A stretch of DNA of 43,145 nucleotides, taken from the IMG/VR virus record IMGVR_UViG_3300021124_000007, positions 1-43,145 of that record, one strand, 5' to 3'. The notes beneath the pieces are model-generated. The model had not been told where the DNA came from, made no database searches, and saw only the letters and a list, made by a program, of their open reading frames with translations. The first letter of the stretch is position 1; each line of letters starts with the position of its first letter. The translations under genes were made by a program, and so were the position numbers. The DNA is from a virus (Duplodnaviria; Caudoviricetes). Below, piece by piece: positions 27,730 through 43,145 of this stretch.

Positions 27730-28539
27730 ATGATTATCAGTAAACCATTTTTGAAGTGGGCAGGGAATAAGAACAAACTTGTGCCTATCATTAGTCCACT
27801 ACTTGGCAAGGGTAACCGATTGGTCGAACCTTTTACTGGCAGTGGTGCTGTATTCATGGCTACTGATTTTCCAAAATATCTGCTATGTGATATTAATGCA
27901 GACCTTATTGGATTGTTTAACAACTTAAAATATAATCCTACAGCAGTTATTACTGAGATCACCCATTTGTTTGATGGCACGAACAATAACGAAACCAAGT
28001 ATTATGAATTGCGCACCGAATTTAACTCGCTTCAACCAACTGATATTCGCAAAAGTGCGCTATTTGTATACCTAAATCGTCATGCTTTCAATGGACTATG
28101 CCGTTATAATAGTAAAGGCGGCTTTAATGTGCCATTTGGAAAGTATAAAACAGTATATTTTCCCATTGATGAACTACAAGCATTTGCACAAAAATCGGTT
28201 TTGGCAGAGTTTCATGTTATGGACTTTAATGCGTGTCTAGATTTAGTAACCGATGGCGATGTTGTATACTGTGACCCACCATATGTGCCACTTACCCCCA
28301 CTGCAAACTTTACCGCATATACTGCAGATGGATTTGGTATGGACAAACAACAGCAACTTGCTGATGCTGCAAATCGCTTGACAAGTAAAAATATTTCCGT
28401 TATTATTAGTAACCACGACACGAGCGTAAGTCGTGCGCTATATGCAAATGCAAGTATTACTACTATTGATGTTCGCAGAAGCATTTCAAGCAATAGTGCC
28501 ACTCGTGGAATGGCTAAAGAATTAATTGCAGTTTTCTAA
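27730..28539 (+). CDS. dam: Dam-family DNA adenine methyltransferase
   Basis: FLKWAGNK, EPFTGSG, FNGLCRYNSKGGFNVPFG, DPPY. Confidence 0.92.
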   Translation: MIISKPFLKWAGNKNKLVPIISPLLGKGNRLVEPFTGSGAVFMATDFPKYLLCDINADLIGLFNNLKYNPTAVITEITHLFDGTNNNETKYYELRTEFNSLQPTDIRKSALFVYLNRHAFNGLCRYNSKGGFNVPFGKYKTVYFPIDELQAFAQKSVLAEFHVMDFNACLDLVTDGDVVYCDPPYVPLTPTANFTAYTADGFGMDKQQQLADAANRLTSKNISVIISNHDTSVSRALYANASITTIDVRRSISSNSATRGMAKELIAVF

Positions 28540-28551
28540 CGGAGAAAATAA

Positions 28552-29088
28552 ATGAAAGTTGGTGGAGTAGGTGGCGGTAATACTGTAAGTGGTGCTGCAT
28601 TTGAAAAACAAACTGACCTTAAAAACGTGCTCGAAAACATTGATGGTATTTCAGTAGAAATAACTGACCACAAAAATGTATTTTCAGTAACACGTGGTGG
28701 CAAGGTTGTTGGTCAACTTATGCAAAAATATGCTCTTTATAAATTTCTAGAAAGTAAAGGCATTGATTACAAGACCATCCTGAGCAAGCGTTTGTTACCA
28801 GATGAATGTTATTATAGTTTTGAAACCTCAACACTTTATATTGGTGAAAAGAAATATCAAAACGGCAACGGCAGTGTTGATGAGAAATTACAAACTTGTG
28901 ATTTTAAGAAGCGCCAATATAAACGACTCGTTGAGTCCATGGATAACGTAAGCGTAGAATATTTTTATGTGCTAAATGATTTCTTTGATGATCCTGCATA
29001 TCGTGATGTGCTATCTTATATCAAAGAAGTTGGTTGCCACTACTACTTTAATGAAATACCACTTGACCTTTTAGGATTTAATCAATGA
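28552..29088 (+). CDS. PD-(D/E)XK restriction-endonuclease-like protein
   Basis: LLPDE...EKKYQ...GSVDEKLQT motif; lies between two methyltransferases. Confidence 0.65.
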   Translation: MKVGGVGGGNTVSGAAFEKQTDLKNVLENIDGISVEITDHKNVFSVTRGGKVVGQLMQKYALYKFLESKGIDYKTILSKRLLPDECYYSFETSTLYIGEKKYQNGNGSVDEKLQTCDFKKRQYKRLVESMDNVSVEYFYVLNDFFDDPAYRDVLSYIKEVGCHYYFNEIPLDLLGFNQ

Positions 29089-30167
29089 CAGTTCAAATTC
29101 TCAACGGCGATTGCCGTGATGTTCTACAAACACTGCCAGAAGGCAGCATCAATATGTGTGTAACTTCGCCACCCTACTATGGGTTGCGAGATTATGGAAC
29201 TGCTACGTGGACGGGCGGTGATCCACAGTGCGACCACGTTGAAAAGATTGCCGCACATGGCGGCGAACGTGCTGACCGTGATCAAAGCGGCAATATCTTT
29301 AAGTTTCGTGGAACCTGTGGTAAATGTGGTGCAACAAGCAGCGACAATCAAATTGGCTTAGAAGAAACGCCAGAGGAATATATCGCGCAACTTGTTGAAG
29401 TGTTTCGTGAAGTTCGCAGAACATTGCGTGATGATGGAACACTATGGGTTAATATTGGTGATTCCTATTACAATTATCGCAGTGGTACCGCATTTGTAAA
29501 GCAGAGTGTTGCCAAGACAAATCAAGATTTGCCTACGCATAGCCCAAGTCGTAATAATAAATTAGCAGGATTAAAAAGCAAAGACCTAATTGGTATTCCA
29601 TGGATGTTGGCATTTGCACTTCGTGCTGATGGTTGGTACCTGCGACAGGATATTATTTGGCATAAACCAAATCCTATGCCAGAGTCGGTAAAAGATCGGT
29701 GCACTAAAGCACATGAATATATTTTCTTGTTAAGCAAGAGTAAGAACTATTACTTTGATCATGTAGCAATCAAAGAACCTACTGTTAAAAGCGGCGGAGC
29801 ACCAAGACAGTTTGGTGCAACAGAACAAGAAGGCACAGGACGTGGTGACATTGGCAATACATTTGTAGATGATGGCACCAGGCAAAAACGCAGTGTATGG
29901 ACAGTGAATACTAAACCATATAAGGAAGCGCATTTTGCAACATTCCCGACAGAATTGATTGAACCTTGCATTTTGGCAGGTTGTCCGAAAGATGGCATGG
30001 TTTTAGACCCATTTGGTGGTAGTGGCACAACAGGTTATATGGCAGATAAGCTAGGGCGCAATGCTACGCTTATTGAACTTAATCCGCAATATATTGAAAT
30101 TGCTGAAAATCGCATTGATCCACCACAAAGTCGTCTTGATCCTAACCTATTTGAGATTGTTTCCTAA
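29085..30167 (+). CDS. N4-C/N6-A DNA methyltransferase (beta class)
   Basis: TSPPY, HFATFP, VLDPFGGSGTT. Confidence 0.9.
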   Translation: MTVQILNGDCRDVLQTLPEGSINMCVTSPPYYGLRDYGTATWTGGDPQCDHVEKIAAHGGERADRDQSGNIFKFRGTCGKCGATSSDNQIGLEETPEEYIAQLVEVFREVRRTLRDDGTLWVNIGDSYYNYRSGTAFVKQSVAKTNQDLPTHSPSRNNKLAGLKSKDLIGIPWMLAFALRADGWYLRQDIIWHKPNPMPESVKDRCTKAHEYIFLLSKSKNYYFDHVAIKEPTVKSGGAPRQFGATEQEGTGRGDIGNTFVDDGTRQKRSVWTVNTKPYKEAHFATFPTELIEPCILAGCPKDGMVLDPFGGSGTTGYMADKLGRNATLIELNPQYIEIAENRIDPPQSRLDPNLFEIVS

Positions 30168-30201
30168 ATAGGTTTAATACCAACCACATGGAGCAAAACC
30201 A

Positions 30202-30420
30202 ATGACTACTGACGAAATTGCAAATATTCAAACTATCAGTGATAATCTAAAAGCATCTATTTCTGCTATTACGCTTGAATTGGTAGATAAGCAAAATCAA
30301 GTAACAGCACTCAACAATGAGATTGCTGCACTTAACAATTTATTAAACAGTTTAGGTGGCAGTGCAAATAATATTGCAGATGCGGTAAGTGCTGCAAAGA
30401 CTACACTTAACATTCAGTAA
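30202..30420 (+). CDS. small coiled-coil protein
   Basis: 72 aa heptad pattern, GGAG RBS. Confidence 0.6.
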   Translation: MTTDEIANIQTISDNLKASISAITLELVDKQNQVTALNNEIAALNNLLNSLGGSANNIADAVSAAKTTLNIQ

Positions 30421-30449
30421 TTGTCATAATACTGTCATAATACTGTGAT
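30421..30449 (+). promoter_or_regulatory. Pho box (three PhoB-type 11-bp direct repeats)
   Basis: TTGTCAT-AATA-CTGTCAT-AATA-CTGTGAT, then CATAAT at 30462, upstream of pstS. Confidence 0.85.
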
Positions 30450-30482
30450 AAATTAGGTTGGCATAATAGAAGGAGAAATCAT

Positions 30483-31412
30483 ATGCTAACCAGACTACTC
30501 GCAGTTGCAGCGGCAACGATTATTGGTACAGCAGCAATGGCTGCTGAAATTACAGGTGCAGGTGCTACTTTCCCATATCCAATATATTCAAAATGGGCAG
30601 ATGCTTATAAAAATAGTTCAGGTAATACACTTAACTACCAATCAATTGGCAGTGGTGCTGGCTTGAAGCAGATTGATGCAAAAACAGTTACATTTGGCGC
30701 AACTGATATTCCAGTAAAGCCAGAAGACCTAGAAAAGAAAGGTCAAGTTCAATTTCCAATGGTAGTTGGTGGCATTGTTCCAGTTGTAAATCTTAAAGAA
30801 GTTACAAATGGTAAACTAACGCTTTCAACTGATATCCTTGCTAAAATCTATATGGAAAAGATTAAGCGTTGGAATGATAAGGAAATTGCAGCTATCAATG
30901 CAGGCGTCACGTTACCAGACCTACCAATTATTAAGATTCGTCGCAGTGACGGTAGCGGTACTACTTGGAACTTCACACGTTTCCTTGCAGAAGCAAATGG
31001 CGATTGGAAGAAGACATTTGGATTTGGTCAAACAGTTGAATGGGCAGGCAGTGCTATTGGTGCTAATGGCAATGCTGGTGTTGCAGCAAACGTTCAACAA
31101 ACCAATGGTTCAATTGGTTATGTAGAATATGCATATGCTAAGCAAAATAATCTTACTGTTGCTAATATGATTGGTAGCGATGGCAAATCAATTGCACCAA
31201 GCCTAAAAGCATTCCAGACAACTTGGCCAATGACAGCAACAACTTATATTGTTATGTATAAGGAACCAGTCGATAGTGCTGCCGCAAAGGAAGCAATCAA
31301 GTTCTTTGAATATGGTTATGCTAACGATAAGATGGCAGAAGAACTAGATTACGTACCGCTAACTGCTGCTCAAAAGGCAGAAACAAAAAAAGTTTGGTCA
31401 AGCATAAAATAA
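30483..31412 (+). CDS. pstS: phosphate ABC transporter substrate-binding protein PstS
   Basis: Signal peptide, GAGATFPYP, YQSIGSGAG, RRSDGSGTT, IGYVEY. Confidence 0.95.
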   Translation: MLTRLLAVAAATIIGTAAMAAEITGAGATFPYPIYSKWADAYKNSSGNTLNYQSIGSGAGLKQIDAKTVTFGATDIPVKPEDLEKKGQVQFPMVVGGIVPVVNLKEVTNGKLTLSTDILAKIYMEKIKRWNDKEIAAINAGVTLPDLPIIKIRRSDGSGTTWNFTRFLAEANGDWKKTFGFGQTVEWAGSAIGANGNAGVAANVQQTNGSIGYVEYAYAKQNNLTVANMIGSDGKSIAPSLKAFQTTWPMTATTYIVMYKEPVDSAAAKEAIKFFEYGYANDKMAEELDYVPLTAAQKAETKKVWSSIK

Positions 31413-31415
31413 TTC

Positions 31416-31445
31416 TTGACATTATTTTTTATTGTGGTATAAATA
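31416..31445 (+). promoter_or_regulatory. overlapping sigma70-type and late promoter ahead of the leader peptide
   Basis: TTGACA 31416-31421; TATAAATA 31438-31445. Confidence 0.7.
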
Positions 31446-31466
31446 GAATACAAATTGAGAGCAAAC

Positions 31467-31553
31467 ATGACTAACACGCCTAAACACAATGATTATAACA
31501 TTTGCCGCATGCCAGAAGGTTTCTGGATGGTGGGGGCGTGTGCCTTGATGTGA
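31467..31553 (+). CDS. putative attenuator leader peptide, 28 aa (MTNTPKHNDYNICRMPEGFWMVGACALM)
   Basis: GAGAG RBS 5 nt before ATG; 3' end carries the antiterminator strand; stop lies 25 nt before the terminator. Confidence 0.65.
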   Translation: MTNTPKHNDYNICRMPEGFWMVGACALM

Positions 31554-31578
31554 TATGCACATCATAGTATGCACTTAG

Positions 31579-31608
31579 CCCCCGAAGCGAAAGTTTCGGG
31601 GGTTTTTT
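31579..31608 (+). terminator. intrinsic terminator (attenuator 3:4 hairpin)
   Basis: CCCCCGAAGC-GAAA-GTTTCGGGGG-TTTTTT. Confidence 0.9.
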
Positions 31609-31628
31609 ATTATTAAGGAGTAAGGTAC

Positions 31629-31787
31629 ATGAAATGGCCAAAGTTGTTAAGAAAGATGTATGATGCAATTCTATCGCATGATACTAAGAAAGAAAAAGAA
31701 TTATTTGAGAAAGCCTTGAAGAAGAATATTAAGGCTAACTTAAAAGATAAAAAGACTACAGTGACTCAGGTTACTGTTCAAGATTAA
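31629..31787 (+). CDS. small basic hypothetical protein (52 aa)
   Basis: AAGGAG/TAAGG RBS; MKWPKLLRKMYDAILSH... Confidence 0.6.
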   Translation: MKWPKLLRKMYDAILSHDTKKEKELFEKALKKNIKANLKDKKTTVTQVTVQD

Positions 31788-31793
31788 ACAAGT

Positions 31794-31887
31794 TTTCAGG
31801 ACGGTATCCCCTACGCATAAGGATACTTCACCGACCAGTACTTGAGCCAAATGGCTGAATAGGTGGTTTCGGCGGTGATAAATGAAA
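31794..31887 (+). ncRNA. candidate structured RNA before tRNA-Trp
   Basis: GC-rich non-coding stretch; stems GTATCC/GGATAC, TCACCG/CGGTGA, AGCCA/TGGCT. Confidence 0.35.
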
Positions 31888-31893
31888 CGATGC

Positions 31894-31968
31894 GTTGGTC
31901 GGGGAAGATGGTAATCCGCAGGTCTCCAAAACCTTGAGAAGTTAGTTCGATTCTAACGACCTTCGCCA
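31894..31968 (+). tRNA. tRNA-Trp(CCA)
   Basis: Cloverleaf, loop CT-CCA-AA, TTCGA T-loop, CCA end; two U-U pairs in the acceptor stem. Confidence 0.85.
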
Positions 31969-32011
31969 ATTTTTCTCTTGACAACCTTAAAAAACATGAT
32001 ATATTAGTAAT

Positions 32012-32248
32012 ATGGCTAGAGCATCAAAACCGCTTAACAAACCTGTTATTCCAAGCGATACCTGTCCTTATATTGACATGGTAATTGACCTTACTGAAAA
32101 GATGGCAAGTGAGCCTAACTATGATTGGCGCAATGAACAGCAAATACTTGCCAAAGCACTGCTAGAATATGTGCGTGAAAGCAACCAAAAACTGCGAATT
32201 TCATCCAAATTCTGGTACGAACAATACCAAAAAGTGTCAAAAAATTGA
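32012..32248 (+). CDS. hypothetical protein
   Basis: 78 aa, PSDTCPYID motif; starts right after a promoter (possibly leaderless). Confidence 0.65.
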   Translation: MARASKPLNKPVIPSDTCPYIDMVIDLTEKMASEPNYDWRNEQQILAKALLEYVRESNQKLRISSKFWYEQYQKVSKN

Positions 32249-32349
32249 GTTTTTGTGTCAAAATATTGGCAAACCTGTCAAAAAAATAACACTTGACAAC
32301 AATTTTAACTGTGTTATATTAGTAATATACCGCAGTTCAGGAGAATTAT

Positions 32350-32982
32350 ATGCGCAAGATAGCCTTATTTTCCCATCATCCAGTGTGCTCCCGTGACTCT
32401 ACAAACGGCATTATTGCCGCCCTAAGTGGTGCCTACGATGTTGAGACCTTTCGGGTAGATGATGACTTTGGCGCTATCTTGGGCGAGGCTGATATCGTAG
32501 CCTTTCCTGGCGGTATCGGTGATAGCCAATCATTTGATTATTTGCTTGGCGACAAGGTAGAGATGATCCAAGACTTTGTTGCCAATGGTGGCAAGTATCT
32601 TGGCATCTGTATGGGTGCGTATTGGGCTGGCAGCCACTACTTCAATCTGCTTGATGGAGTAGATGCTGTTCAGTATATTCGCCGCCCACAGGCTTGTACT
32701 GCTCGTCCATACGGCACTGTTGTAGAAGTGGATTGGCGTGGTGATAAAGAAGCTATGTATTTCTATGATGGCTGTGCATTGGTTGGCAACAAGCGTAAGT
32801 TTGAGACTGTTGCTACCTATGCCAATGGCGATGCTATGGCTATTCGTCAAGGCAATGTAGGTATCATCGGCTGTCATCCTGAGAGCCAAGCATACTGGTA
32901 TGATACATGGCAGTATATGCCACAGTTCTATCACGATGGTCATCATCATACGCTGCTACGTGAGTTCGTAGATAAACTATAA
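32350..32982 (+). CDS. BPL_N / class I glutamine amidotransferase-like protein
   Basis: FPGG, GGKYLGICMGAY nucleophile elbow, GCHPE. Confidence 0.82.
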   Translation: MRKIALFSHHPVCSRDSTNGIIAALSGAYDVETFRVDDDFGAILGEADIVAFPGGIGDSQSFDYLLGDKVEMIQDFVANGGKYLGICMGAYWAGSHYFNLLDGVDAVQYIRRPQACTARPYGTVVEVDWRGDKEAMYFYDGCALVGNKRKFETVATYANGDAMAIRQGNVGIIGCHPESQAYWYDTWQYMPQFYHDGHHHTLLREFVDKL

Positions 32983-33033
32983 AATAATAGTTACGGGAAG
33001 GTCTGCGTTTGTATAAATATAAATGGAGACAAA

Positions 33034-33582
33034 ATGTTTTATTTTATATACAAAACTACAAATAATATAAATGGAAAATATTATATTGGCTGTCACAAAA
33101 CAGCCAATATAGATGATGGATACATGGGTTCTGGAAAGGCATTATTAAAAGCCATAGAAAAATATGGCAAGCATAATTTTACAAAAGAAATATTGATTTA
33201 TTGCACAACAATTGATGACATGTTTGAAAAAGAAAAAGAAATAGTCAATGAAAGTGTAGTAAATGATGAAAATTCATATAATTTAAAAATAGGTGGTTCA
33301 TCTAATTTTTATTATGTTAATAAAAATAAATTAAATCATAAAACAAATCAACATCTGAAACATGCTGAAAAGTTAAAAAACGATCCAGAGTATGCAAAGC
33401 AATTTAGCAAAAAAATGAGTATTGCTAATAGAAAAAAAGAACATAAAAAAACGGAAAAACAAAAAGAATCTGCAAAAAAAGTTATGACATTATTAAATGA
33501 AAAAAGAAAAAATAATAGAAATCATACAGTAGAAACAAAAGTTAAAATTGCAGCATCAGTAAAAAAAAAGATGGGACGATAG
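33034..33582 (+). CDS. GIY-YIG (Seg-like) homing endonuclease
   Basis: FIYKTTN..NGKYYIG.H..DGYMGSG..KYG..NF.KE..YNL..GG. Confidence 0.9.
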   Translation: MFYFIYKTTNNINGKYYIGCHKTANIDDGYMGSGKALLKAIEKYGKHNFTKEILIYCTTIDDMFEKEKEIVNESVVNDENSYNLKIGGSSNFYYVNKNKLNHKTNQHLKHAEKLKNDPEYAKQFSKKMSIANRKKEHKKTEKQKESAKKVMTLLNEKRKNNRNHTVETKVKIAASVKKKMGR

Positions 33583-33649
33583 CAAAAATGGCTAATGCAC
33601 TGGACTGCAAATCCTCAAGGTGTCGGTTCGAATCCGACTCGTCCCTCCA
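33573..33649 (+). tRNA. tRNA-Cys(GCA)
   Basis: GGGACGA/TCGTCCC, U73, CCA; weak anticodon stem; overlaps the stop codon of the HEG. Confidence 0.8.
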
Positions 33650-33691
33650 ACATATGCCCTACAAAAATAATATTTGTAGGGCATCTTAAAT

Positions 33692-33767
33692 GCAAAGTTA
33701 GCAAATGTGGTCATTACACTGGACTGAAAATCCAGCCAACTTGGTTCGATCCCAAGACTTTGCACCA
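33692..33767 (+). tRNA. tRNA-Phe(GAA)
   Basis: CTGGA-CTGAAAA-TCCAG arm, CCA end. Confidence 0.88.
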
Positions 33768-33772
33768 TTACT

Positions 33773-33849
33773 GCCCGAATAGTCCAATTGGTAGAGGCGT
33801 TCGACTCAAAATCGAAATGTTGTCAGTTCGAGTCTGACTTTGGGCACCA
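33773..33849 (+). tRNA. tRNA-Leu(CAA), short variable loop
   Basis: TTCGA-CTCAAAA-TCGAA arm, CCA end. Confidence 0.88.
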
Positions 33850-33872
33850 TTTTTATAAAAGGAGTAACCAAG

Positions 33873-34114
33873 ATGCTACGGGACTGTATCTAGAAACAAC
33901 AGATGGGCGAATCGTCAATATTACAGTTTATGTAATGGGCGGTCTGCATACTTTAACAAAGACATACACCATATATTATAAAGAGGAATGGGGCGGTTTC
34001 CCCGATTTACATAATTGGTGGTTCTTCAAAGAAGTAAAAGACGAACCTGATGGTCTATACTATGATAAACGAAGCTACTTTATTGAAATAAAAACAAAAG
34101 GCTCCATCTTATAA
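33873..34114 (+). pseudogene. probable frameshifted small gene
   Basis: AGGAG RBS + ATG 33873 closes after 6 codons, while another frame stays open to 34114. Confidence 0.35.
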
Positions 34115-34171
34115 TGGCTATTATCCTTGACTGTCTATCAGGGGATAGGGGTTCGATCCCCCTTGGAGTCG
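34100..34171 (+). tRNA. tRNA-Asp(GTC), CCA not encoded
   Basis: CTTGA-CTGTCTA-TCAGG arm, G73 followed by CAT. Confidence 0.85.
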
Positions 34172-34233
34172 CATAAGCGCCTCGAATGTATAAATAGTAA
34201 TGTCAATAAAACTATTATACATTCGAGGGCAGC

Positions 34234-34863
34234 ATGTTTTATACGATTTATAAAATTACTAATATCATAAACAACAAATATTATATTGGTATGCATCAAA
34301 CTGAAAATATAAATGACAATTATATGGGTTCTGGTAAACTTATTAAAATAGCCATACAAAAATATGGAATTGAAAATTTTAAAAAAGAAATATTACATAT
34401 ATTCGATAACGAAAAAGATATGAAAAATAAAGAAAAAGAACTCGTTGTTTTAGATGAAATGAGTTATAATCTCTGTGATGGCGGGAAAGGTGGATTTGGA
34501 TATATTAATCGTACAGGATTAAATAATAATCACAAAGATAAAGAAGCAATATATGAAAAGGTATCAAAGTCTCTATCTGGCAGACAATTACCACATGTAT
34601 CTTCTCTTCTTAAAGAAAGACATGAAAATGGATTATTTAAAAAAACATATTTTGGTTCTCGTGGGGAAATTGACAAATTAGCTTTAGAAAAAGCACACTC
34701 ACCAGAATCTAATGCAAAACGCATTAAAACATATCGAGAAAAAGAACACCAAAAAGGTGAAAAAAATTCTCAATTTGGTAAACCAAGAAGTGAAGAAACT
34801 AAACAAAAAATAAGAGAATCTCTGGCAAAAACCAGAGAATTAAAAAAATTATCAACAATTTAA
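34234..34863 (+). CDS. GIY-YIG (Seg-like) homing endonuclease with NUMOD3
   Basis: TIYKITN..KYYIG.H..YMGSG, YNLCDGGKGG, RSEETKQKI. Confidence 0.9.
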   Translation: MFYTIYKITNIINNKYYIGMHQTENINDNYMGSGKLIKIAIQKYGIENFKKEILHIFDNEKDMKNKEKELVVLDEMSYNLCDGGKGGFGYINRTGLNNNHKDKEAIYEKVSKSLSGRQLPHVSSLLKERHENGLFKKTYFGSRGEIDKLALEKAHSPESNAKRIKTYREKEHQKGEKNSQFGKPRSEETKQKIRESLAKTRELKKLSTI

Positions 34864-34864
34864 T

Positions 34865-34924
34865 GCGGTGGTTTGCATGGGTGCTTTAACTAACAACCAC
34901 GAGGTTCGATTCCTCGCTGCCGCT
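34865..34924 (+). ncRNA. tRNA-like RNA lacking a normal anticodon arm
   Basis: 7-bp acceptor GCGGTGG/CTGCCGC and perfect T-arm CGAGG-TTCGATT-CCTCG separated by only 28 nt. Confidence 0.6.
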
Positions 34925-34932
34925 CAAATTAT

Positions 34933-35008
34933 GCTCCCTTCGTCTAGCGGTCAAGGATAACAGACTTTCAATCTGCAGAGACGGGTTCAACTCCCGTTGG
35001 GAGCACCA
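34933..35008 (+). tRNA. tRNA-Glu(TTC)
   Basis: Loop CT-TTC-AA, CCA end. Confidence 0.88.
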
Positions 35009-35014
35009 AATTAG

Positions 35015-35089
35015 TGGCGCATAACTCAGTGGTAGAGTAATCGCTTGATAAGCGATAAGTCGTTGGTTCAAATCCAACTGTGCCAACCA
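35015..35089 (+). tRNA. tRNA-Ile(GAT)
   Basis: ATCGC-TTGATAA-GCGAT arm, CCA end. Confidence 0.92.
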
Positions 35090-35094
35090 ATAAT

Positions 35095-35171
35095 GCTGTT
35101 GGGTCGGTGGTGGACATCGAACCACTCTCATAAGGTGGACAAAACTGCTTCGAGTGCAGTCAGCAGCACCA
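35095..35171 (+). tRNA. tRNA with CAT anticodon (elongator Met or Ile2)
   Basis: CCACT-CTCATAA-GGTGG arm, CCA end. Confidence 0.82.
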
Positions 35172-35175
35172 ACAT

Positions 35176-35249
35176 GCCTCGTTAGTTCAATGGTAGAACA
35201 TCGGTTTGTGGAACCGATTACGGTGGTTCAATTCCGCCACGAGGTACCA
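35176..35249 (+). tRNA. tRNA-His(GTG), no G-1, U72/A73
   Basis: TCGGT-TTGTGGA-ACCGA arm; base -1 is T; ends GAGGT-A-CCA. Confidence 0.92.
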
Positions 35250-35256
35250 ATTACAT

Positions 35257-35334
35257 GGACCGTTAGCTGAGTTGGTTTTAGCGGGAGACTCTTAATCTCC
35301 GTCAACGTAGGTTCAAATCCTACACGGTCTGCCA
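35257..35334 (+). tRNA. tRNA-Lys(CTT)
   Basis: GGAGA-CTCTTAA-TCTCC arm, CCA end. Confidence 0.9.
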
Positions 35335-35356
35335 ACCAATGATATATACAAATAAT

Positions 35357-35430
35357 GCGGATATGATGTAGAGGTAACCTGTCTCCTTGCCAAGGAGAAT
35401 TCACCAGTTCGATTCTGGTTATCCGCTCCA
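35357..35430 (+). tRNA. tRNA-Gly(GCC)
   Basis: TCTCC-TTGCCAA-GGAGA arm, U73, CCA end. Confidence 0.9.
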
Positions 35431-35455
35431 ATACAAACCATCGGAGGGTATCAAA

Positions 35456-35770
35456 ATGAAATACCTAGTGCCTCTACTATTAATTTCAACTGCTACGGTG
35501 GCTCAAGAAAACGGTCCACTTTGTGCAATTGGTGATAAAGTATTTGGATATTTAAATTCTCAATATGGTGAAATACCTTTTGCTGAATTTCTTGATCCTC
35601 AAAATCGCCATATGATTATGTTGGTCAGTCCTAAAACAAGCACGTGGACAGTTCTATTAGAGCAAAGTGATGGTAAATTCTGTGGTGTTGCTAGCGGTAC
35701 AAAGTTTGAACCTGCTGATCAGAAAAAATTTGAAAAATACCAAGAAAAAAAACCTGAAACACCAGGTTAA
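35456..35770 (+). CDS. hypothetical secreted protein (104 aa)
   Basis: GGAGG RBS; MKYLVPLLLISTATVAQ signal peptide; two Cys. Confidence 0.7.
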   Translation: MKYLVPLLLISTATVAQENGPLCAIGDKVFGYLNSQYGEIPFAEFLDPQNRHMIMLVSPKTSTWTVLLEQSDGKFCGVASGTKFEPADQKKFEKYQEKKPETPG

Positions 35771-35815
35771 AAAACTGCTTGACAAATAATTTAAATGTGG
35801 TAATGTAAAGATATT

Positions 35816-35901
35816 GGGAGTGTGTGCCGAGCAGCGAAGGCAACGGTCTGTAAAACCGTGACATAGAAACAGCGTAGGTGCGAGTCCTACCGCTCCCACC
35901 A
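35816..35901 (+). tRNA. tRNA-Tyr(GTA)
   Basis: ACGGT-CTGTAAA-ACCGT arm, long variable region, TGCGAGT T-loop, CCA end. Confidence 0.88.
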
Positions 35902-35983
35902 TAATTTATTATAACTTTTACTACTAATCGGTATCAAAAAAGTGCTTGACAAGCATAAATTATATGATATAGTAAAAAAATAC

Positions 35984-36060
35984 TGTGGCTGTAGAGAACC
36001 AGATATCTCACCATCCTCATAAGCTGGAGATAGGGTGTGCAATTCATCCCGCCGCAACCA
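35984..36060 (+). tRNA. divergent tRNA-Met(CAT), possibly initiator-derived
   Basis: Loop CT-CAT-AA, U1-A72, TGCAATT T-loop, CCA end; several mismatches. Confidence 0.7.
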
Positions 36061-36063
36061 AGA

Positions 36064-36176
36064 TTGTAGCAGTATGGCACTGCTTGTGAAGCACCTACGG
36101 AGATGGTAGGAGAGCAGATGAGAAATCATCTAACGCAACAAATGCCAACAGTTTGCCAACAGTGGGGTTGCAAACC
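36064..36176 (+). ncRNA. candidate multi-hairpin RNA
   Basis: Stems GCAGT/ACTGC, CCTAC/GTAGG, AGATGA-GAAA-TCATCT, GTTTGC-CAAC/GTTG-CAAAC. Confidence 0.35.
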
Positions 36177-36179
36177 TAC

Positions 36180-36253
36180 TGGTCGTTCGTCTATAGGAAT
36201 AGGATACAACTGCGGAGTCGGTTGAGAGATGGGTTCGATCCCCATACGATGGC
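36180..36253 (+). ncRNA. tRNA-like RNA (Glu/Asp-type body) with non-canonical anticodon loop
   Basis: D-arm GTCT..GGAT, arm CAACTG-CGGAGT-CGGTTG, T-arm ATGGG-TTCGATC-CCCAT, imperfect acceptor, no CCA. Confidence 0.6.
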
Positions 36254-36262
36254 AATATATAC

Positions 36263-36335
36263 CTCTGTGGAGTTAGGGTAAGATTAATACCGCACTTGGA
36301 CTGCGGGGAATCTGGGGCAGCGCCAGACACGGAGA
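36263..36335 (+). tRNA. tRNA-Pro(TGG) with atypical GGCAGCG T-loop, CCA not encoded
   Basis: CTCTGTG/CACGGAG acceptor, CCGCA-CTTGGAC-TGCGG, TCTGG-GGCAGCG-CCAGA, A73. Confidence 0.75.
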
Positions 36336-36400
36336 CACAAGTGTCCCAGTTGTATAAATAGTAGTAGAGTAAATCTATTTCTTACAACTGGGACATACAT

Positions 36401-37099
36401 ATGTTTTATACAATCTATAAAATTACTAATAAAATAAATGGCAAATATTATATTGGTAAACACCAAACTACCAATCTAAATGATGGGTATATGGGAAGTG
36501 GAAAAAATGTAAAAAGAGCAATTGCCAAATACGGCATTGAAAATTTTACAAAAGAAATATTACACACCTATGATAATGAAGCAGATATGAATGCTGCTGA
36601 AAAAAAATTAGTTGTTATAAGTGAAGAAACCTACAATTTATGCGAAGGCGGAAAAGGTGGGTTTAGTCATATTAACAAAAATAATCTATCTGTAAAAAAT
36701 TTAAAAAATCCAAATGTTAGAAAAGTTGCCACTAAAAATTCCAATAAAAAAAGAATAGAAAATTTTAATAATAATACAGTGTTAAAAAAACAGTGGGAAG
36801 ATAATATATCTAATAGTTTAAAATCTTATTATAAAACACATTCTGGAACTTTTACAGGAAAAAGACACCCAAAGGAAATTGAAAATAGAATTGCTGAAAA
36901 GTTAAAAATAACAAATAAAGGCAGCGGTAATCCAAATTTTGGAAAATGTTGGATTAAAAATGTAAAAACAAAAGAATATGGAATGATATTAAAATCTGAT
37001 TTAAATTATTGGATTTCTCTTGGGTGGGAACTTGGACAAATACGAGAAAATGGTATTCCAGTAAAATTGAAAAATAATCAAGACGGTAAGGCACAGTAA
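36401..37099 (+). CDS. GIY-YIG (Seg-like) homing endonuclease
   Basis: TIYKITN..KYYIGKH..YMGSG, YNLCEGGKGG; close paralogue of 34234..34863. Confidence 0.9.
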   Translation: MFYTIYKITNKINGKYYIGKHQTTNLNDGYMGSGKNVKRAIAKYGIENFTKEILHTYDNEADMNAAEKKLVVISEETYNLCEGGKGGFSHINKNNLSVKNLKNPNVRKVATKNSNKKRIENFNNNTVLKKQWEDNISNSLKSYYKTHSGTFTGKRHPKEIENRIAEKLKITNKGSGNPNFGKCWIKNVKTKEYGMILKSDLNYWISLGWELGQIRENGIPVKLKNNQDGKAQ

Positions 37100-37165
37100 A
37101 CAATCCGCAATGGCGATGGGATGTGTCACGGTGTGGGCGATAGATGGGGGCTGCACACTGACTTT
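37080..37165 (+). repeat. 86-bp direct repeat, copy 1 (structured, GC-rich)
   Basis: Matches 37958-38043 except for one C/T. Confidence 0.92.
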
Positions 37166-37173
37166 GAAATTTT

Positions 37174-37200
37174 GGATCGGTTACCGTAGTGGCGAACGGA
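37174..37200 (+). pseudogene. truncated tRNA (5' acceptor strand plus D-arm only)
   Basis: GGATCGG-TT-ACCG-TAGTGGCGAA-CGG-A, cut off at the end of the inserted minus-strand gene. Confidence 0.55.
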
Positions 37201-37201
37201 A

Positions 37202-37867
37202 CTAATCTATATCAAAGTCTAAGGGTGTCTCGTAACAAGTATGTATTTGCAGCACTTCTTTAACATCACGCCCAATTAATTCAACCCAATTATTTGTGCA
37301 ATGAATTTGATTGCTATTAAAAATTACAGCAGAACCTGCACTATATTCAAAAATACCATCGAGAGTAAGATAATTTGCAACATAGTCTCGGATACGTTCA
37401 TCATAAGTGTGTGATATATTTTCAAGTTCGCTGATATTATTTTTTCGTTGTTTAGTTTTAATTAATTTATATAGATCATTAGATGCTAACCAATTAAAAT
37501 AAAGTGAAGTTTTTTCAAATTTTTCTTTAAAAACAATCGTTTTGCTTTGTGGCAAATCATCTAAGGCTATCACCATTGTATATCTATACAAATGTTCATT
37601 GCCATTTGGTTCATCCATATGTAAATTTAAAGGTTTATATTGTAATTGATAACCGCCATAAGGTTCTTCGTATGGTATTGGAAAATTATTTTTTACTAAA
37701 CGATCAACAATAGCAAAACATTCATCTTTATTTGACAAATCTATTCTGGAATTTAATAATTCGCTTTGACTTTTAAATAAATCATATTTTTTATTTAAAC
37801 TTTGATTAAACCAGTTTCGCAATTCATTAATTTCTGCTTGAGATAAAATTTTGTTAAACAATTTCAT
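37202..37867 (-). CDS. hypothetical protein, 2OG-Fe(II) oxygenase-like
   Basis: LNLHMD (HxD) and GSAVIFNSNQIH distal His; very AT-rich. Confidence 0.6.
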   Translation of the reverse strand: MKLFNKILSQAEINELRNWFNQSLNKKYDLFKSQSELLNSRIDLSNKDECFAIVDRLVKNNFPIPYEEPYGGYQLQYKPLNLHMDEPNGNEHLYRYTMVIALDDLPQSKTIVFKEKFEKTSLYFNWLASNDLYKLIKTKQRKNNISELENISHTYDERIRDYVANYLTLDGIFEYSAGSAVIFNSNQIHCTNNWVELIGRDVKEVLQIHTCYETPLDFDID

Positions 37868-37957
37868 AAAATTATTTATATATTATAAATCTGATATAAC
37901 AAATATTGCAATTTGGGTAGGGTGTGTTGGCAAAAAAATGCTACCTATATAAAAACT

Positions 37958-38043
37958 AAGATGGTAAGGCACAGTAAACAATCCGCAATGGCGATGGGAT
38001 GTGTCACGGTGTGGGCGATAGATGGGGGCTGCACACTGACTTT
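37958..38043 (+). repeat. 86-bp direct repeat, copy 2
   Basis: Matches 37080-37165; followed by tRNA-Lys(TTT). Confidence 0.92.
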
Positions 38044-38053
38044 TTGAATTTTA

Positions 38054-38129
38054 GAACGCTTAACTCAGTTGGTAGAGTACGGGTCTTTTAAACCTGTTGT
38101 CGTGGGTTCGAACCCCACAGCGTTCACCA
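38054..38129 (+). tRNA. tRNA-Lys(TTT)
   Basis: CGGGT-CTTTTAA-ACCTG arm, CCA end. Confidence 0.9.
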
Positions 38130-38136
38130 ATATAAT

Positions 38137-38213
38137 GCCTACGTAGTTCAGTGGAATAGAATAGCGGTCTTCGAAACCGTGGGTCGGGGGTTCAAATCCC
38201 TCCGTAGGCTCCA
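38137..38213 (+). tRNA. tRNA-Arg(TCG)
   Basis: GCGGT-CTTCGAA-ACCGT arm, CCA end. Confidence 0.9.
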
Positions 38214-38268
38214 AAAATAATACTTGACAAATTTGTCAAATATAAGTATATTAAGAATATAAGGTTAT

Positions 38269-38344
38269 TGCTTAGTAGCACAGCGGTAGTTGCGTCGGTC
38301 TGTTAAACCGAGGGTCGTAGGTTCGAATCCTACCTAAGCAGCCA
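38269..38344 (+). tRNA. tRNA-Asn(GTT)
   Basis: TCGGT-CTGTTAA-ACCGA arm, G73, CCA end. Confidence 0.92.
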
Positions 38345-38395
38345 TTAACATACAATGTTATATAAATACATATAGGTTCGAATAAGGAGACCTAT

Positions 38396-38905
38396 ATGAG
38401 TAAGCAATCTGAAAATGTAATTAACTGGCGTAAAAGAACAAAACAAAAAATTGTTCAATCAATGGGTGGGTGTTGCCAAATTTGTGGATACTTCAAATGC
38501 GATGCGGCACTTGAATTACACCACATAGACCCAACAAAAAAAGAATTAAGTTTTTCTTCAATTAGAGCAAATCCAAAATCAGCAGAGGCAATTAAGGTTG
38601 AATTAATAAAATGTATTTTATTATGTTCTAATTGCCATAAAGAAATTCATAATGGTTTAATATCTATTCCAGAAAATTATGTGCAATTCAATGAAGAAAT
38701 ATTTGATGGTTGGAAAATTGAAAGAAAAGAACGCAAAGAAAAATTTAAGAAAGATAAAGTATGGCGTCAAAAGATGTTCTTAACCAATCAAGAAGTTTTT
38801 GAAAAGTTAACAACAATCTATAATGGTAATAAATCTGCTATGGCAAGGGATTATGGAGTTACTGAAACTACTATTAGAAAAAGGTTAAAGATGTTAGAAC
38901 GGTAG
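38396..38905 (+). CDS. HNH homing endonuclease
   Basis: CQICG..LELHHID..LLCSNCHKEIH, C-terminal HTH. Confidence 0.88.
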   Translation: MSKQSENVINWRKRTKQKIVQSMGGCCQICGYFKCDAALELHHIDPTKKELSFSSIRANPKSAEAIKVELIKCILLCSNCHKEIHNGLISIPENYVQFNEEIFDGWKIERKERKEKFKKDKVWRQKMFLTNQEVFEKLTTIYNGNKSAMARDYGVTETTIRKRLKMLER

Positions 38906-39517
38906 TGGAAAGAAATACCAAATTCCATCTGCCAGAACAATCAAACCGATAATACCAACGGCAATGCTGCTATACCATAGAGCCATACTAACAGCAAGAA
39001 TAGCAGTGGTTGAGAAGATAATAGCAATCTGAATAATGGTGCTAGCCATACCAAAGAATGGACTACACTTTTTGGCGCTATCACGGTCTGCTTCTAGCGC
39101 ACGACCTTTTGCCATAATTTCTTTTTTACCATCACCTTTTGGATCACTTTCTAACGCATCAATATATTTTTGATAGTTGTCAGCACGTGATTGCAACGCA
39201 GGTTTTAAACTTTTGTCAGTTTGAGGATCAGCAATTTGAACTTTTAAATCATCAAGGTTAAGTTGATACATATTTTGTTTAATGCTCTTGGCTTGATAAA
39301 AACCCCAAGTATCACCAAGTTCAATATTATCAGCCATGATTCTACCACTGACTTGCCCACCAAGCCAAGATGTAATTGCTAACAGTGCAGCAAAGATTGT
39401 AATTGTTATAGAAGCAAGCCCTTTAAGAACGGCTTCACCCTCGCTGCGGCTTAATACCTTGCCTTCTTTACTTTTCAAAACCATGTCCATCATTCCTTGA
39501 AATTGTTTTATGTCCAT
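38894..39517 (-). CDS. DUF4337-like membrane protein
   Basis: TM helix, DTWGFYQAKSIKQ motif, two C-terminal TM helices. Confidence 0.7.
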   Translation of the reverse strand: MDIKQFQGMMDMVLKSKEGKVLSRSEGEAVLKGLASITITIFAALLAITSWLGGQVSGRIMADNIELGDTWGFYQAKSIKQNMYQLNLDDLKVQIADPQTDKSLKPALQSRADNYQKYIDALESDPKGDGKKEIMAKGRALEADRDSAKKCSPFFGMASTIIQIAIIFSTTAILAVSMALWYSSIAVGIIGLIVLADGIWYFFPLPF

Positions 39518-39605
39518 ATTAATTCTTTACAAATAATTGCAACTGCTAACACTACAATTGAGGCAACCATCGCATACAAATAATAATCAAATAATTTACT
39601 GTTAC

Positions 39606-40106
39606 TCATCGTCCTACTAATACCTTTAATAATGGAACCCAACTCTTCATTGAGTAATATGCCATAGGGTCAGCAATACCCCAAATTAACAAACCAAGCC
39701 ACACAACAAGTGGCAAGAATACAAATAATATCGCAGCAGCCCAAAAATACTGAACCATTTCATCATGCGCTTCACGACGACGACGCTCTGCCTTTTTAGC
39801 AGCATTTGCAGCATCAATTTTGCTTTGCTTGTATGCTGCTCGTTGTGCTGGCGTCATTCGAGCCATTGCCATTGCTTCTTGTTCTGCTGCAATTTCTTGC
39901 ATTGCCTGAACACGTAGAGCATTATTACTACGAGTAATTTGATTATTAATTTCAGTAATTTTGTTTTGATTAATAACACGTTGATTGTTTGCTGCTTTCT
40001 GTGCAGGTGCATTTTTAACAACATCTACAATGCCAAATACAGCATCTGTAACGCCCTTGCCATAGGCTTCACCTAGTTTAGCGGCACTCTTTGGGTCCAT
40101 TACCAT
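39606..40106 (-). CDS. hypothetical coiled-coil membrane protein
   Basis: 166 aa, C-terminal TM helix; GATAAATA upstream. Confidence 0.65.
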   Translation of the reverse strand: MVMDPKSAAKLGEAYGKGVTDAVFGIVDVVKNAPAQKAANNQRVINQNKITEINNQITRSNNALRVQAMQEIAAEQEAMAMARMTPAQRAAYKQSKIDAANAAKKAERRRREAHDEMVQYFWAAAILFVFLPLVVWLGLLIWGIADPMAYYSMKSWVPLLKVLVGR

Positions 40107-40217
40107 AGAAATATCCTTTAAAAGATAACATTATACTTGACATGCATAACTATTTATCTAGTTTTTATTTTACAAGTATGGTAAACTTGCTGCAAGTTTA
40201 CCAGTTTAGGAACAGTT

Positions 40218-40679
40218 ATGCACAGAAAAGATATATTAGAAAGAAAAGAAGAAATATTAAATTGGATATCCAATCATGAACCAAAGGTATATATTTGTAA
40301 ACAATTAAAATGCAAACCCGATACGCTTGAAACATATTTAAAAAAAATGAATATCTCATATGTTGGCAATCAAGGCAGCAAAGGAAAAAAAATTGATTGG
40401 AAATATGTAGATGCGTTAACTTATGCTAAAAAAGATAATGTATCAGCGCATAAGTTAAGAATTAAATTATTAAGAGATAAAATAAAAATACATTGTTGTG
40501 AAGTATGCAATACAAGTGAATGGATGGGATGCCCGATACCATTGGAATTAGATCACATTGATGGCAATCATTATAATAATGATTTAACCAATTTAAGAAT
40601 AATATGCCCAAATTGTCATGCTCAAACTGATACTCACGCAGGAAAAAATAGAAATAAATTGACAAGGATAACTAACTAG
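40218..40679 (+). CDS. HNH homing endonuclease
   Basis: CEVC..LELDHIDGN..N...NLRIICPNCHAQT. Confidence 0.9.
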   Translation: MHRKDILERKEEILNWISNHEPKVYICKQLKCKPDTLETYLKKMNISYVGNQGSKGKKIDWKYVDALTYAKKDNVSAHKLRIKLLRDKIKIHCCEVCNTSEWMGCPIPLELDHIDGNHYNNDLTNLRIICPNCHAQTDTHAGKNRNKLTRITN

Positions 40680-40695
40680 TATATTATAATAAAAT

Positions 40696-40771
40696 GCGTC
40701 TGTAGTCCAATGGTAGAGACACAAGGTTTAGGTTCTTGGTGGTGGGAGTTCGAATCTCTTCAGACGCACCA
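40696..40771 (+). tRNA. tRNA-Leu(TAG), short variable loop
   Basis: CAAGG-TTTAGGT-TCTTG arm, CCA end. Confidence 0.85.
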
Positions 40772-40780
40772 ATATAATAT

Positions 40781-40941
40781 GCTGCTTTAGCTCAGTTGGT
40801 AGAGCAACGCACTAATCCGTAGCGGGTAACGCTACCAACCAAGTAGCAATGCTTGGTTGCTTGTGGGTATGAAGAGCCTAAAGCTCCCAATGCCGAGAGG
40901 TAATGCGTAGGTCGTCAGTTCGAATCCGACAAGCAGCACCA
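40781..40941 (+). tRNA. tRNA-Thr (GGT after joining) interrupted by an 85-nt insert in the anticodon loop
   Basis: 40781-40813 plus 40899-40941 give a 76-nt cloverleaf with ACGCA-CTGGTAA-TGCGT and CCA. Confidence 0.85.
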
Positions 40942-40946
40942 TTATT

Positions 40947-41030
40947 GGAGGTATGCGAGCAAGGTGCTCAAACGGTCTTGAAAACCGTGCCACCGCAAGG
41001 TTGATGGTTCGATTCCTTGTACCTCCGCCA
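40947..41030 (+). tRNA. tRNA-Ser(TGA)
   Basis: ACGGT-CTTGAAA-ACCGT arm, long variable arm, G73, CCA end. Confidence 0.85.
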
Positions 41031-41050
41031 ACATAGAGAAAGTAAAGAAG

Positions 41051-41170
41051 ATGTATAAGAAGTTTAAGCTATTTGAACGAGTGTTTGACTTTGTTTTGAA
41101 ATTATTTTGGTTTGCACTTCTTTGCAAGTGGTTATTTGCCGAAGTAAATATACATGATTACATCAAGTAA
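41051..41170 (+). CDS. small hydrophobic protein (39 aa)
   Basis: ORF fills the gap between tRNA-Ser and tRNA-Gly. Confidence 0.4.
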   Translation: MYKKFKLFERVFDFVLKLFWFALLCKWLFAEVNIHDYIK

Positions 41171-41244
41171 GCGGATTTCGTATAGTGGTAATACCGCAGC
41201 CTTCCAAGCTGCAGCGAGGGGTTCGATTCCCCTAGTCCGCTCCA
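41171..41244 (+). tRNA. tRNA-Gly(TCC)
   Basis: GCAGC-CTTCCAA-GCTGC arm, U73, CCA end. Confidence 0.92.
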
Positions 41245-41257
41245 TTTAAGGTTAGAT

Positions 41258-42541: not shown

Positions 42542-42548
42542 ATAATAT

Positions 42549-42707
42549 ATGAATTATTCAATTGCAAAAATGATTGAGTTTGCATTCACTTATATCATAA
42601 TTAATGAACTAAAAAATGAAAATCATACCATGCCTGATGATAAAAGACTAATTATATTAGATTACATGACACAGCGTATTGATGAAATACGCAAAGTTTT
42701 CAAATGA
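42549..42707 (+). CDS. small hypothetical protein (52 aa)
   Basis: ORF with ATGA overlap to the next gene. Confidence 0.5.
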   Translation: MNYSIAKMIEFAFTYIIINELKNENHTMPDDKRLIILDYMTQRIDEIRKVFK

Positions 42708-42997
42708 ATGTATCAATAGACGATATAGATATAGATAGCATAACCTCACTAGCACCTAACAAGTATCTTGTTAAAATATACCCAAATATTGGCACTCCTT
42801 ATATTCCGCCATTTGGTTTTGAATTTCTTAAAGAAACTATACAAACACCATTACGTAAATGGTGTGATGAAAGTTTTTCCCACAATTATTCATTAAATTA
42901 TAGATTTAACAGCGGCAACCCTTATTGGTCGCTGCTTTTTAATAGTAGCGAAGATGTTAATATCTTTATGCTACGTTTTGGTTCAAATAAACCCTAA
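42704..42997 (+). CDS. small hypothetical protein (F-x-L-R-W/F family)
   Basis: RKWCDE..RFNSGNPYW..FNSSEDVNIFMLRFG. Confidence 0.7.
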   Translation: MNVSIDDIDIDSITSLAPNKYLVKIYPNIGTPYIPPFGFEFLKETIQTPLRKWCDESFSHNYSLNYRFNSGNPYWSLLFNSSEDVNIFMLRFGSNKP

Positions 42998-43145
42998 TAT
43001 CATTTGCTGCATAATTTTGAATATTCAATTGTAATGGCGTAGCAATGCCTAATTTTTCACATAAATCAATATTATCATATATCATTGATAATTCATTATT
43101 TTTTACAAACTTTTTCAAGTCCTTATTCTGTTTATCAATGTGATG
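42966..43145 (-). CDS. partial CDS entering from the right edge
   Basis: Open minus-strand frame (..IDKQNKDLKKFVK..) ending with TAA at 42966. Confidence 0.4.
   Translation of the reverse strand, partial: HHIDKQNKDLKKFVKNNELSMIYDNIDLCEKLGIATPLQLNIQNYAANDIRVYLNQNVA

Follow-up and report, generated by a model that had tools for sequence, protein, structure and literature searches.

The leader element and its surroundings

The window analysed here, that is the whole 43,145-nt stretch of DNA, is a 43-kb fragment of a large, uncultured tailed phage, and carries a tail sheath gene (PHROG E-value 3e-195), a tail-tube-like gene, pstS and homing endonuclease genes. A full-length relative, G001, is 338 kb long and has terminal repeats; a blastn search of positions 30400-33000 found nothing among 50,697 phage records, and hence no cultured relative for that region. 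An ORF on the minus strand (12920-13564) matches neither PHROG nor Pfam families, and its product looks like a secreted or outer-membrane protein. Its presumed resemblance to a rhizobial outer-membrane protein may hint at an alphaproteobacterial host.

The locus of interest lies on the plus strand, directly downstream of a gene for a pstS-like phosphate-binding protein (30483-31412; PHROG 5385, E-value 2.7e-54; Pfam PBP_like_2), which serves here as context only. In L020, a related phage without a leader at this place, a tmRNA-like gene was recognized by inspection immediately 3′ of pstS. Re-reading of the sequence confirmed throughout the coordinates that the initial annotation had given for the promoter, ORF, pairing strands and terminator. 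The predicted promoter (31416-31445) consists of TTGACA (31416), 16 nt and TATAAA, overlapped by the motif TATAAATA (31438), and both motifs are invariant in the 19 homologues. We take TATAAATA to be the T4-type late promoter consensus; it is also found upstream of the tail-tube-like gene and of four endonuclease genes of the window. A ribosome-binding site, GAGAG (31457-31461), is predicted from the sequence, homologues being purine-rich at the same place, and is followed by a leader ORF of 28 codons (31467-31553), whose ATG and open frame are present in all 19 complete homologues and whose length changes ahead of the antiterminator are of +3 nt. Codons 2-20 (31470-31526) form the predicted sensing zone, with 15 amino acids including Met and with Trp20 as a borderline member. 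A two-codon spacer (31527-31532) comes next, fixed in length and free in sequence, with six and five different codons at its two positions among 16 sequences.

The 3′ part of the ORF contains the antiterminator 5′ strand, or segment 2 (31532-31543), which can pair with segment 3, the antiterminator 3′ strand (31571-31583). Segment 3 overlaps the 5′ arm of an intrinsic terminator (31577-31608; 12-bp stem and U tract), identified by a terminator scan and by pairing in homologues, and the strongest terminator-like site in 28000-43145. The antiterminator and the terminator are mutually exclusive, as their strands overlap and are re-paired in distant lineages. The loop of the antiterminator is closed by a hairpin over the stop codon (31546-31564), which is 100% paired in the homologues and in which one pair is changed on both sides in 7 of the 19. 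A smaller hairpin over codons 16-20 (31512-31526; 100% paired, one one-sided change) is predicted as well, and these two conserved hairpins are candidate pause sites for RNA polymerase. A protector strand, or segment 1 (31474-31481), has its partner at 31534-31541; 98.7% of its cells are paired across the 19 sequences, with two one-sided changes and no two-sided change, and the helix is weak at equilibrium. The second protector that had been proposed at 31507-31513 was not retained: it is absent from the minimum-energy fold and altered in two homologues (L008 and L032).

The fold of the leader has a free energy of −59.1 kcal/mol (z-score −4.97), a value reached by none of 200 shuffled sequences, much of the signal coming from the terminator. 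The antiterminator duplex amounts to −21.5 kcal/mol, which none of 500 shuffles of the upstream sequence reach. When the growing transcript was folded, the 1:2 pairing persisted up to position 31583, the antiterminator had formed at 31590, and the full-length transcript had the terminator. A search of 28000-43145 and of four relatives yielded no riboswitch or T-box match at the Rfam gathering score, with weak, terminator-driven hits only, and identity with a riboswitch was rejected since no curated aptamer or T-box model matched.

The leader ORF specifies 18 amino acids in 28 codons, 15 of them in its first 20 codons, with no runs. These counts agree with those of the initial annotation, except that the missing pair is Gln and Ser, although a tRNA-Ser is present in the array. 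Leu codons occur only 3′ of the pairing strand, despite two tRNA-Leu genes in the window. Fifteen amino acids in 20 codons are reached by 4.7% of 9131 20-mers taken from the window's proteins, 18 amino acids in 28 codons by 1.5% of background stretches, and the joint presence of Trp, Cys, His, Tyr and Phe within 20 codons by 0.5% of the background. That is, diversity within a single sequence is only mildly unusual, and the strength of the argument comes from the homologues. Moreover, the idea of an 'all-tRNA' sensor has to be given up, as Leu, Ser, Ala, Val and Gln fall outside the sensing zone.

The effect of a translating ribosome was modelled by masking its footprint and cutting the transcript just past the terminator 5′ arm, using equilibrium folding and an assumed footprint. 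With the A-site at codons 2-19 the antiterminator forms in the model, and from codon 21 to the stop codon it does not. The earlier reservation that a stall at the last codons might cover the antiterminator strand applies to Trp20, a borderline case in which the strand is partly freed with a shorter footprint but not with a longer one, whereas stalls at codons 2-19 are predicted to free the antiterminator. The modelled switch coincides with the end of the diverse zone in all 12 leaders, most sharply in the window and less so in the other 11. Without a ribosome, the equilibrium probability of the antiterminator is 0.67 in the window and 0.94-1.0 in the other 11 leaders. A full trp-type 1:2 protector, as initially put forward, may not apply: the helix is kept in the close family, but the untranslated leader still favours the antiterminator, and the 1:2 protector looks weak in the model. 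Since the antiterminator forms without a ribosome, failed initiation would probably also give read-through.

Conservation in close and distant relatives

Close homologues were gathered via pstS (80 loci) and by DNA patterns (9, 25, 28 and 23 matches), giving 21 distinct leader sequences, of which two cut by contig ends were dropped and 19 were analysed. The short ORF, whose conservation in related phages the initial annotation had proposed as a test, is conserved: TTGACA, TATAAATA, the ATG, the frame, the antiterminator and the terminator are kept in 19 of 19. The composition of the peptide is conserved too, in that the set of 15 amino acids ahead of the antiterminator is unchanged in 18 of the 19, although one of these has it in rewritten order. 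Counted up to the Phe-Trp pair, 16 sequences have exactly the 15 amino acids of the window, two add Ser and one is without Thr. In the rewritten leader (L008/L145) 14 codons have been replaced, yet His, Lys, Asp, Ile, Cys, Arg, Gly and Tyr were regained, and none of Ala, Val, Ser, Gln and Leu was taken up; the simulated chance of this composition is 8e-6, 2.3e-5 or 1.5e-4 for three backgrounds, in a test made post hoc. Among the 16 colinear sequences there are three changes at the ten single-copy codons, all of them synonymous, and replacements affect the duplicated residues (codons 2, 4, 8, 11 and 15), the spacer codons and one Asn/Ile swap that keeps both amino acids. A frame that is translated, with its composition under selection, would be expected to change in this way. 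The aligned leaders show selection acting on amino-acid composition and not on order, as judged from sequence.

At the RNA level, the leader helices are 99.7-100% paired within the close family, with few two-sided changes, and the antiterminator is nearly invariant, having one two-sided change in one of 19 sequences. One contig (L150) carries two identical leader copies (3618 and 9093) 5.5 kb apart, which may be a duplication or an assembly artefact.

Distant lineages were located via pstS or via a small RNA lying downstream of the leader (see below), so that the search was blind to the peptide. The small-RNA pattern gave 32 viral matches, with 28 new locus identifiers made up of 14 from the known family, 8 chance matches and 6 new genuine loci, and all 6 of the latter have a promoter, a short ORF and a terminator upstream. 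In GTDB genomes the same pattern had 14 matches, and inspection showed neither the context of the RNA nor a tRNA at any of them. Three lineages were thereby defined, L036 (=L420)/L423, L417 (=L430)/L426 and L415, with unrelated-looking peptides of 17-19 different amino acids, whose diversity is significant when combined with one peptide per lineage (P = 8e-5). A cross-lineage alignment put the antiterminator strands out of register, and duplex energies were used instead of pair counts. Each distant lineage has a different segment 2 and a matching, equally different partner (0-10 of 500 shuffles reach the duplex energy), that is, the two strands have been replaced together in L036/L423, in L417/L426 and in L415, as expected under the antiterminator pairing first proposed. 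A pattern designed for the L417/L426 lineage returned only three contigs, all known.

Downstream RNAs, the tRNA array and leaders of unrelated phages

In the window, the terminator is followed by a 52-codon orphan ORF (31629-31787), found in some relatives only and matching no family above cut-off, and by a two-domain structured RNA of ~80 nt (31799-31878). The latter is the constant element 3′ of the terminator, being present in every locus with enough sequence in four lineages. It shows strong covariation, with two-sided changes at 9 of 22 pairs among 16 sequences, and invariant loops; it had no Rfam match in the window or four relatives, and was found only in the window's phage group, behind the leader. 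It could act in antitermination, so that read-through continues beyond later terminators. The ~80-nt RNA also has, in our assumption, some likeness to Y RNAs; no TROVE/Ro60 gene was present in four records, one of them complete, and a Y RNA reading is not supported. In L099, L095, L149 and L032 the interval between the terminator and tRNA-Trp holds long-stem RNAs with tRNA-like T-arms, presumably Y-like in appearance as well, whose only above-threshold Rfam match is as tRNA.

The array begins with tRNA-Trp(CCA) (31894-31965; Rfam 34.9 bits), the only tRNA ahead of the first internal promoter. The main block (33573-38344), with internal promoters and endonuclease genes within, encodes tRNAs for Cys, Phe, Leu, Asp, Glu, Ile, Met, His, Lys, Gly, Tyr, Lys, Arg and Asn, a weak CAT tRNA and a degenerate tRNA-Pro. 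The distal block (40696-41244; Leu, interrupted Thr, Ser and Gly) lies behind two opposite-strand genes and has its own promoter-like site at 40659. ARAGORN called 17 tRNA genes, and Rfam added Trp (31894) and the interrupted Thr (40781); the degenerate tRNA-Pro (~36263-36338) was called by neither program. The tRNA-Thr (40781-40938) has an 85-nt structured insert, possibly an intron, in its anticodon loop; the tRNA-Thr(AGT) of relatives is uninterrupted, and its A34 anticodon is unusual for bacteria. Other tRNA-like elements within the array are a CCA-ending RNA also found in relatives (36061-36148), one with an irregular anticodon loop (36179-36252) and a degenerate element with a T-arm (34864-34926), next to the degenerate tRNA-Pro. 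A sequence of ~80 nt occurs twice (~37082-37165 and 37961-38043), flanking an opposite-strand gene within the array, and the TATAAATA motif is located at 33012, 34189, 36353 and 38361, immediately 5′ of each endonuclease-like gene inserted in the array.

The statement that all 15 amino acids of the zone have a tRNA gene downstream needs correcting, as tRNA-Pro is degenerate and tRNA-Thr interrupted, and as the complete genome G001 has no tRNAs for Phe, His, Pro and Tyr. Counting residues that are in the leader and lack a tRNA in the array, there are none in L092 (P = 0.009), G002 (P = 0.053) and G003 (P = 0.018), one or two in L095, L096, L109, L113 and the window (P = 0.03-0.07; window 0.073), and four in G001 (P = 0.21), namely the four just given. 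In none of the seven close-family loci does either the zone or the array include Ala, Val or Gln. The tRNAs for these three are scattered elsewhere in G001, along with Ser(GCT), Leu(TAA), Thr(TGT), Arg(TCT) and a Met tRNA, and inspection revealed no convincing leader at the scattered genes. Leu and Ser tRNAs are unrepresented in the sensing zone of the close family. In G002, Gln and Ser occur in leader and array alike, and a tRNA-Asp is present without an Asp codon. G003 is without Phe, Gly and Ala in both leader and array, and L426 is without Phe in both; their sister L417 has Phe in both. With only three L417/L426 contigs known, the Phe swap rests on one pair. The match between leader and array is real but loose, lagging behind tRNA loss.

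The caution in the initial annotation that internal promoters may restrict control to the first genes was well founded, since there are four sigma70-like and four TATAAATA sites inside the window's array. In addition, the stretch between the small RNA and tRNA-Trp contains a promoter, a short gene and a terminator-like hairpin at 8 of 17 loci. On account of the internal promoters and of this intervening gene and hairpin, the small RNA is the firm target of the proposed control. The terminator scan found no further plus-strand terminator after the leader up to 43036, and three weak hairpins were all that a looser detector picked up, so that read-through could add to transcription of the whole main block.

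Leaders of the same layout were sought at pstS loci, at 120 viral tRNA-Trp loci sampled from 2 of the 64 parts of the collection (flanks were available for 80), in six cultured-phage regions and in four regions of G001. At array heads, 10 of 42 terminators had a promoter and short ORF; they represent 9 loci, three of which belong to the window's family. The layout occurred at 3 of 109 terminators near tRNAs and at none of 140 far from tRNAs, an enrichment with P = 7e-7, the window's family included. The six cultured-phage regions, among them that of a T5-like phage, gave no layout match. A loose antiterminator pattern, run on 13 of the 64 parts, gave at least four matches with a tRNA within 4 kb among the 119 listed matches examined, one of them new (L178).

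These unrelated leader-plus-terminator units lie at or inside phage tRNA arrays (L303, L340, L277, L279, L178, L280, L332 and L341, besides L290). Their peptides contain 20 of 20 amino acids in L290, 19 in L303, L340 and L277, 18 in L279, 16 in L280, 15 in L332 and 14 in L341. Seven unrelated array-head peptides are diverse in combination (P = 4.5e-4), four of the seven singly not beyond chance (P = 0.21-0.92); nor does the diversity of the L178 peptide alone exceed chance. In L290 (G004, minus strand, ~1770-1940) a 35-codon leader with all 20 amino acids, an antiterminator and a terminator are followed by a dense tRNA array. The terminator lies 10 nt from the first tRNA in L290 and 15 nt in L178. 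The duplex test is weak for L290 (78 of 500 shuffles), and its fold has an 11-pair antiterminator; judged by sequence, L290 appears to be the cleanest candidate among the unrelated leaders for functional study. L279 appears leaderless, with no ribosome-binding site and an ATG near the promoter, and its array comprises 30 tRNAs and no consensus internal promoter. Control over most of the array is likely where the array is compact, as in L279 and L290, and uncertain in the window.

Proposed function and comparison with known systems

Taken together, the conserved layout and the footprint model suggest that the element is probably a broad-spectrum leader-peptide attenuator, with read-through at stalls on codons 2-19 and termination from codon 21. 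The leader ORF would be translated, and the ribosome, coupled to RNA polymerase, would switch read-through, the signal presumably being a shortage of charged tRNA caused by cleavage, degradation or starvation. A ribosome that stalls anywhere within codons 2-19 would leave the antiterminator free, so that transcription runs on, whereas one that reaches codon 21 or beyond would cover it and allow the terminator to form. Read-through would first yield the ~80-nt RNA and tRNA-Trp, and then add to transcription of the remaining array, which would also proceed from its own promoters; the new phage tRNAs would make the leader readable again and close a feedback loop. The central proposal of the initial annotation, a ribosome-gated attenuator with a peptide selected for variety, came through the comparative tests; the wording on 'all-tRNA' sensing and on tRNAs for 15 of 15 amino acids did not, and that on a full 1:2 protector looks doubtful. 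A wider reading, which we consider conceivable and hold slightly less readily than its opposite, is that many unrelated large phages have independently evolved a 'test gene' with one codon per tRNA that audits the host tRNA pool and releases the array on demand, the peptide's set of residues co-evolving with the array; such a leader would be a sensor of host immunity that destroys tRNAs.

Several other explanations have to be weighed. The same attenuator could have the ~80-nt RNA (plus the small ORF or tRNA-Trp) as its real target, most tRNAs being made from internal promoters and the position at the array head being historical. The presence of this RNA behind the terminator across four lineages, the internal promoters and the gene and terminator-like hairpin that intervene in 8 of 17 loci all fit such a view, which we nevertheless regard as unlikely, because the composition of the leader tracks the tRNA set of the array and because unrelated leaders lie 10-15 nt from the first tRNA (L178, L290) or precede an array without a consensus internal promoter (L279). 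The leader might instead be a general sensor of ribosome speed or availability, responding to antibiotics, host translation shut-off or lost coupling, with codon variety incidental or merely widening the response and tRNA shortage not the selected signal. General uORF sensors are indeed described (PMC12218461; whiB7, 10.1101/2023.06.02.543512), and the untranslated leader favours the antiterminator too, at the probabilities given above. A composition-blind sensor, though, needs neither the protection of single-copy codons nor a set of residues that survives rewriting, which makes this explanation improbable.

Less probable still, in our judgement, is that the 160-nt transcript is a stand-alone small RNA, a riboswitch or a small-protein gene with an ordinary terminator, its antiterminator being a by-product of runs of G and C. 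The stable fold, strong promoter and terminator and high sequence conservation in the close family would suit such an RNA; against this, no Rfam family matched, none of the 140 control terminators has the layout, and between lineages it is the composition and the antiterminator that are kept, not the order of the peptide or the 5′ RNA sequence. Finally, a trp-type leader in another frame (31489-31548), with tandem Trp codons, could have controlled tRNA-Trp only. This frame exists in the window and tRNA-Trp is first in the array, but the frame has no Shine-Dalgarno-like site, just 10 of 21 sequences keep its ATG context and L004 and L007 no longer have the Trp pair, and it was rejected as contradicted by the homologues, retaining a negligible probability.

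We therefore favour the broad-spectrum attenuator. Why phages carry tRNA genes has been debated for decades, and if the proposal is true, phage tRNAs would be an inducible response to failing translation, attenuation would extend from biosynthetic and stress genes to viral tRNA genes, and the leader would provide a compact reporter (200 nt) for tRNA-targeting defence systems, with a response readable codon by codon. A search that covered titles, the beginnings of abstracts and few subscription papers found no published description of leader-peptide attenuation of phage tRNA genes.

Judged by the comparisons, the element is neither of the trp/his class nor a whiB7 leader, and appears to work like both. 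The leaders trpL, hisL and pheL, and multivalent ones such as thrL and that of ilvGMEDA, contain repeats of between one and three amino acids and regulate biosynthetic genes, and an untranslated trp leader leads to termination. The phage leader resembles those of amino-acid operons in having a promoter, a short ORF, an overlapping antiterminator and intrinsic terminator, and the same geometry from last control codon to segment 2; it differs in its 15 amino acids without repeats, in the RNA genes downstream, in its weak 1:2 helix and in an untranslated state that is predicted to read through. One hypothesis at present holds that phage tRNAs take the place of host tRNAs destroyed by defence nucleases (PMC10264068). 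A spare tRNA array induced by translational stress is described for the trn operon of Anabaena PCC 7120, which unlike the phage array is controlled by a protein repressor, TrcR, acting at initiation (PMC8421152, PMC10272220); neither 'attenuat' nor 'leader' appears as a word in PMC8421152. The Sinorhizobium duf1127 uORF likewise involves uORF-dependent premature termination that monitors translation efficiency, but depends on access to C-rich codons instead of an antiterminator helix, and has no tRNA target (PMC12218461).

A further parallel is with the bacterial whiB7/wblC uORF, which has nearly all amino acids, stalling that leads to an antiterminator and read-through, and a composition that sets the signal; the whiB7 uORF of Mycobacterium smegmatis contains 19 of 20 amino acids, with single Trp codons sufficing for sensing (10.1101/2023.06.02.543512). 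When the start codon of whiB7 is lost, expression is reported to rise (10.1101/2023.06.02.543512), and the phage leader without a ribosome is predicted to read through. Unlike the phage element, the whiB7 uORF is bacterial, longer, enriched in Ala and controls a transcription factor, whereas the phage leader has a 20-codon zone with most amino acids present once and stands before tRNA and small-RNA genes; no relation in sequence between the two is claimed. The region downstream holds no WhiB7/WblC-type target, only the 52-codon orphan ORF, the small RNA and tRNAs.
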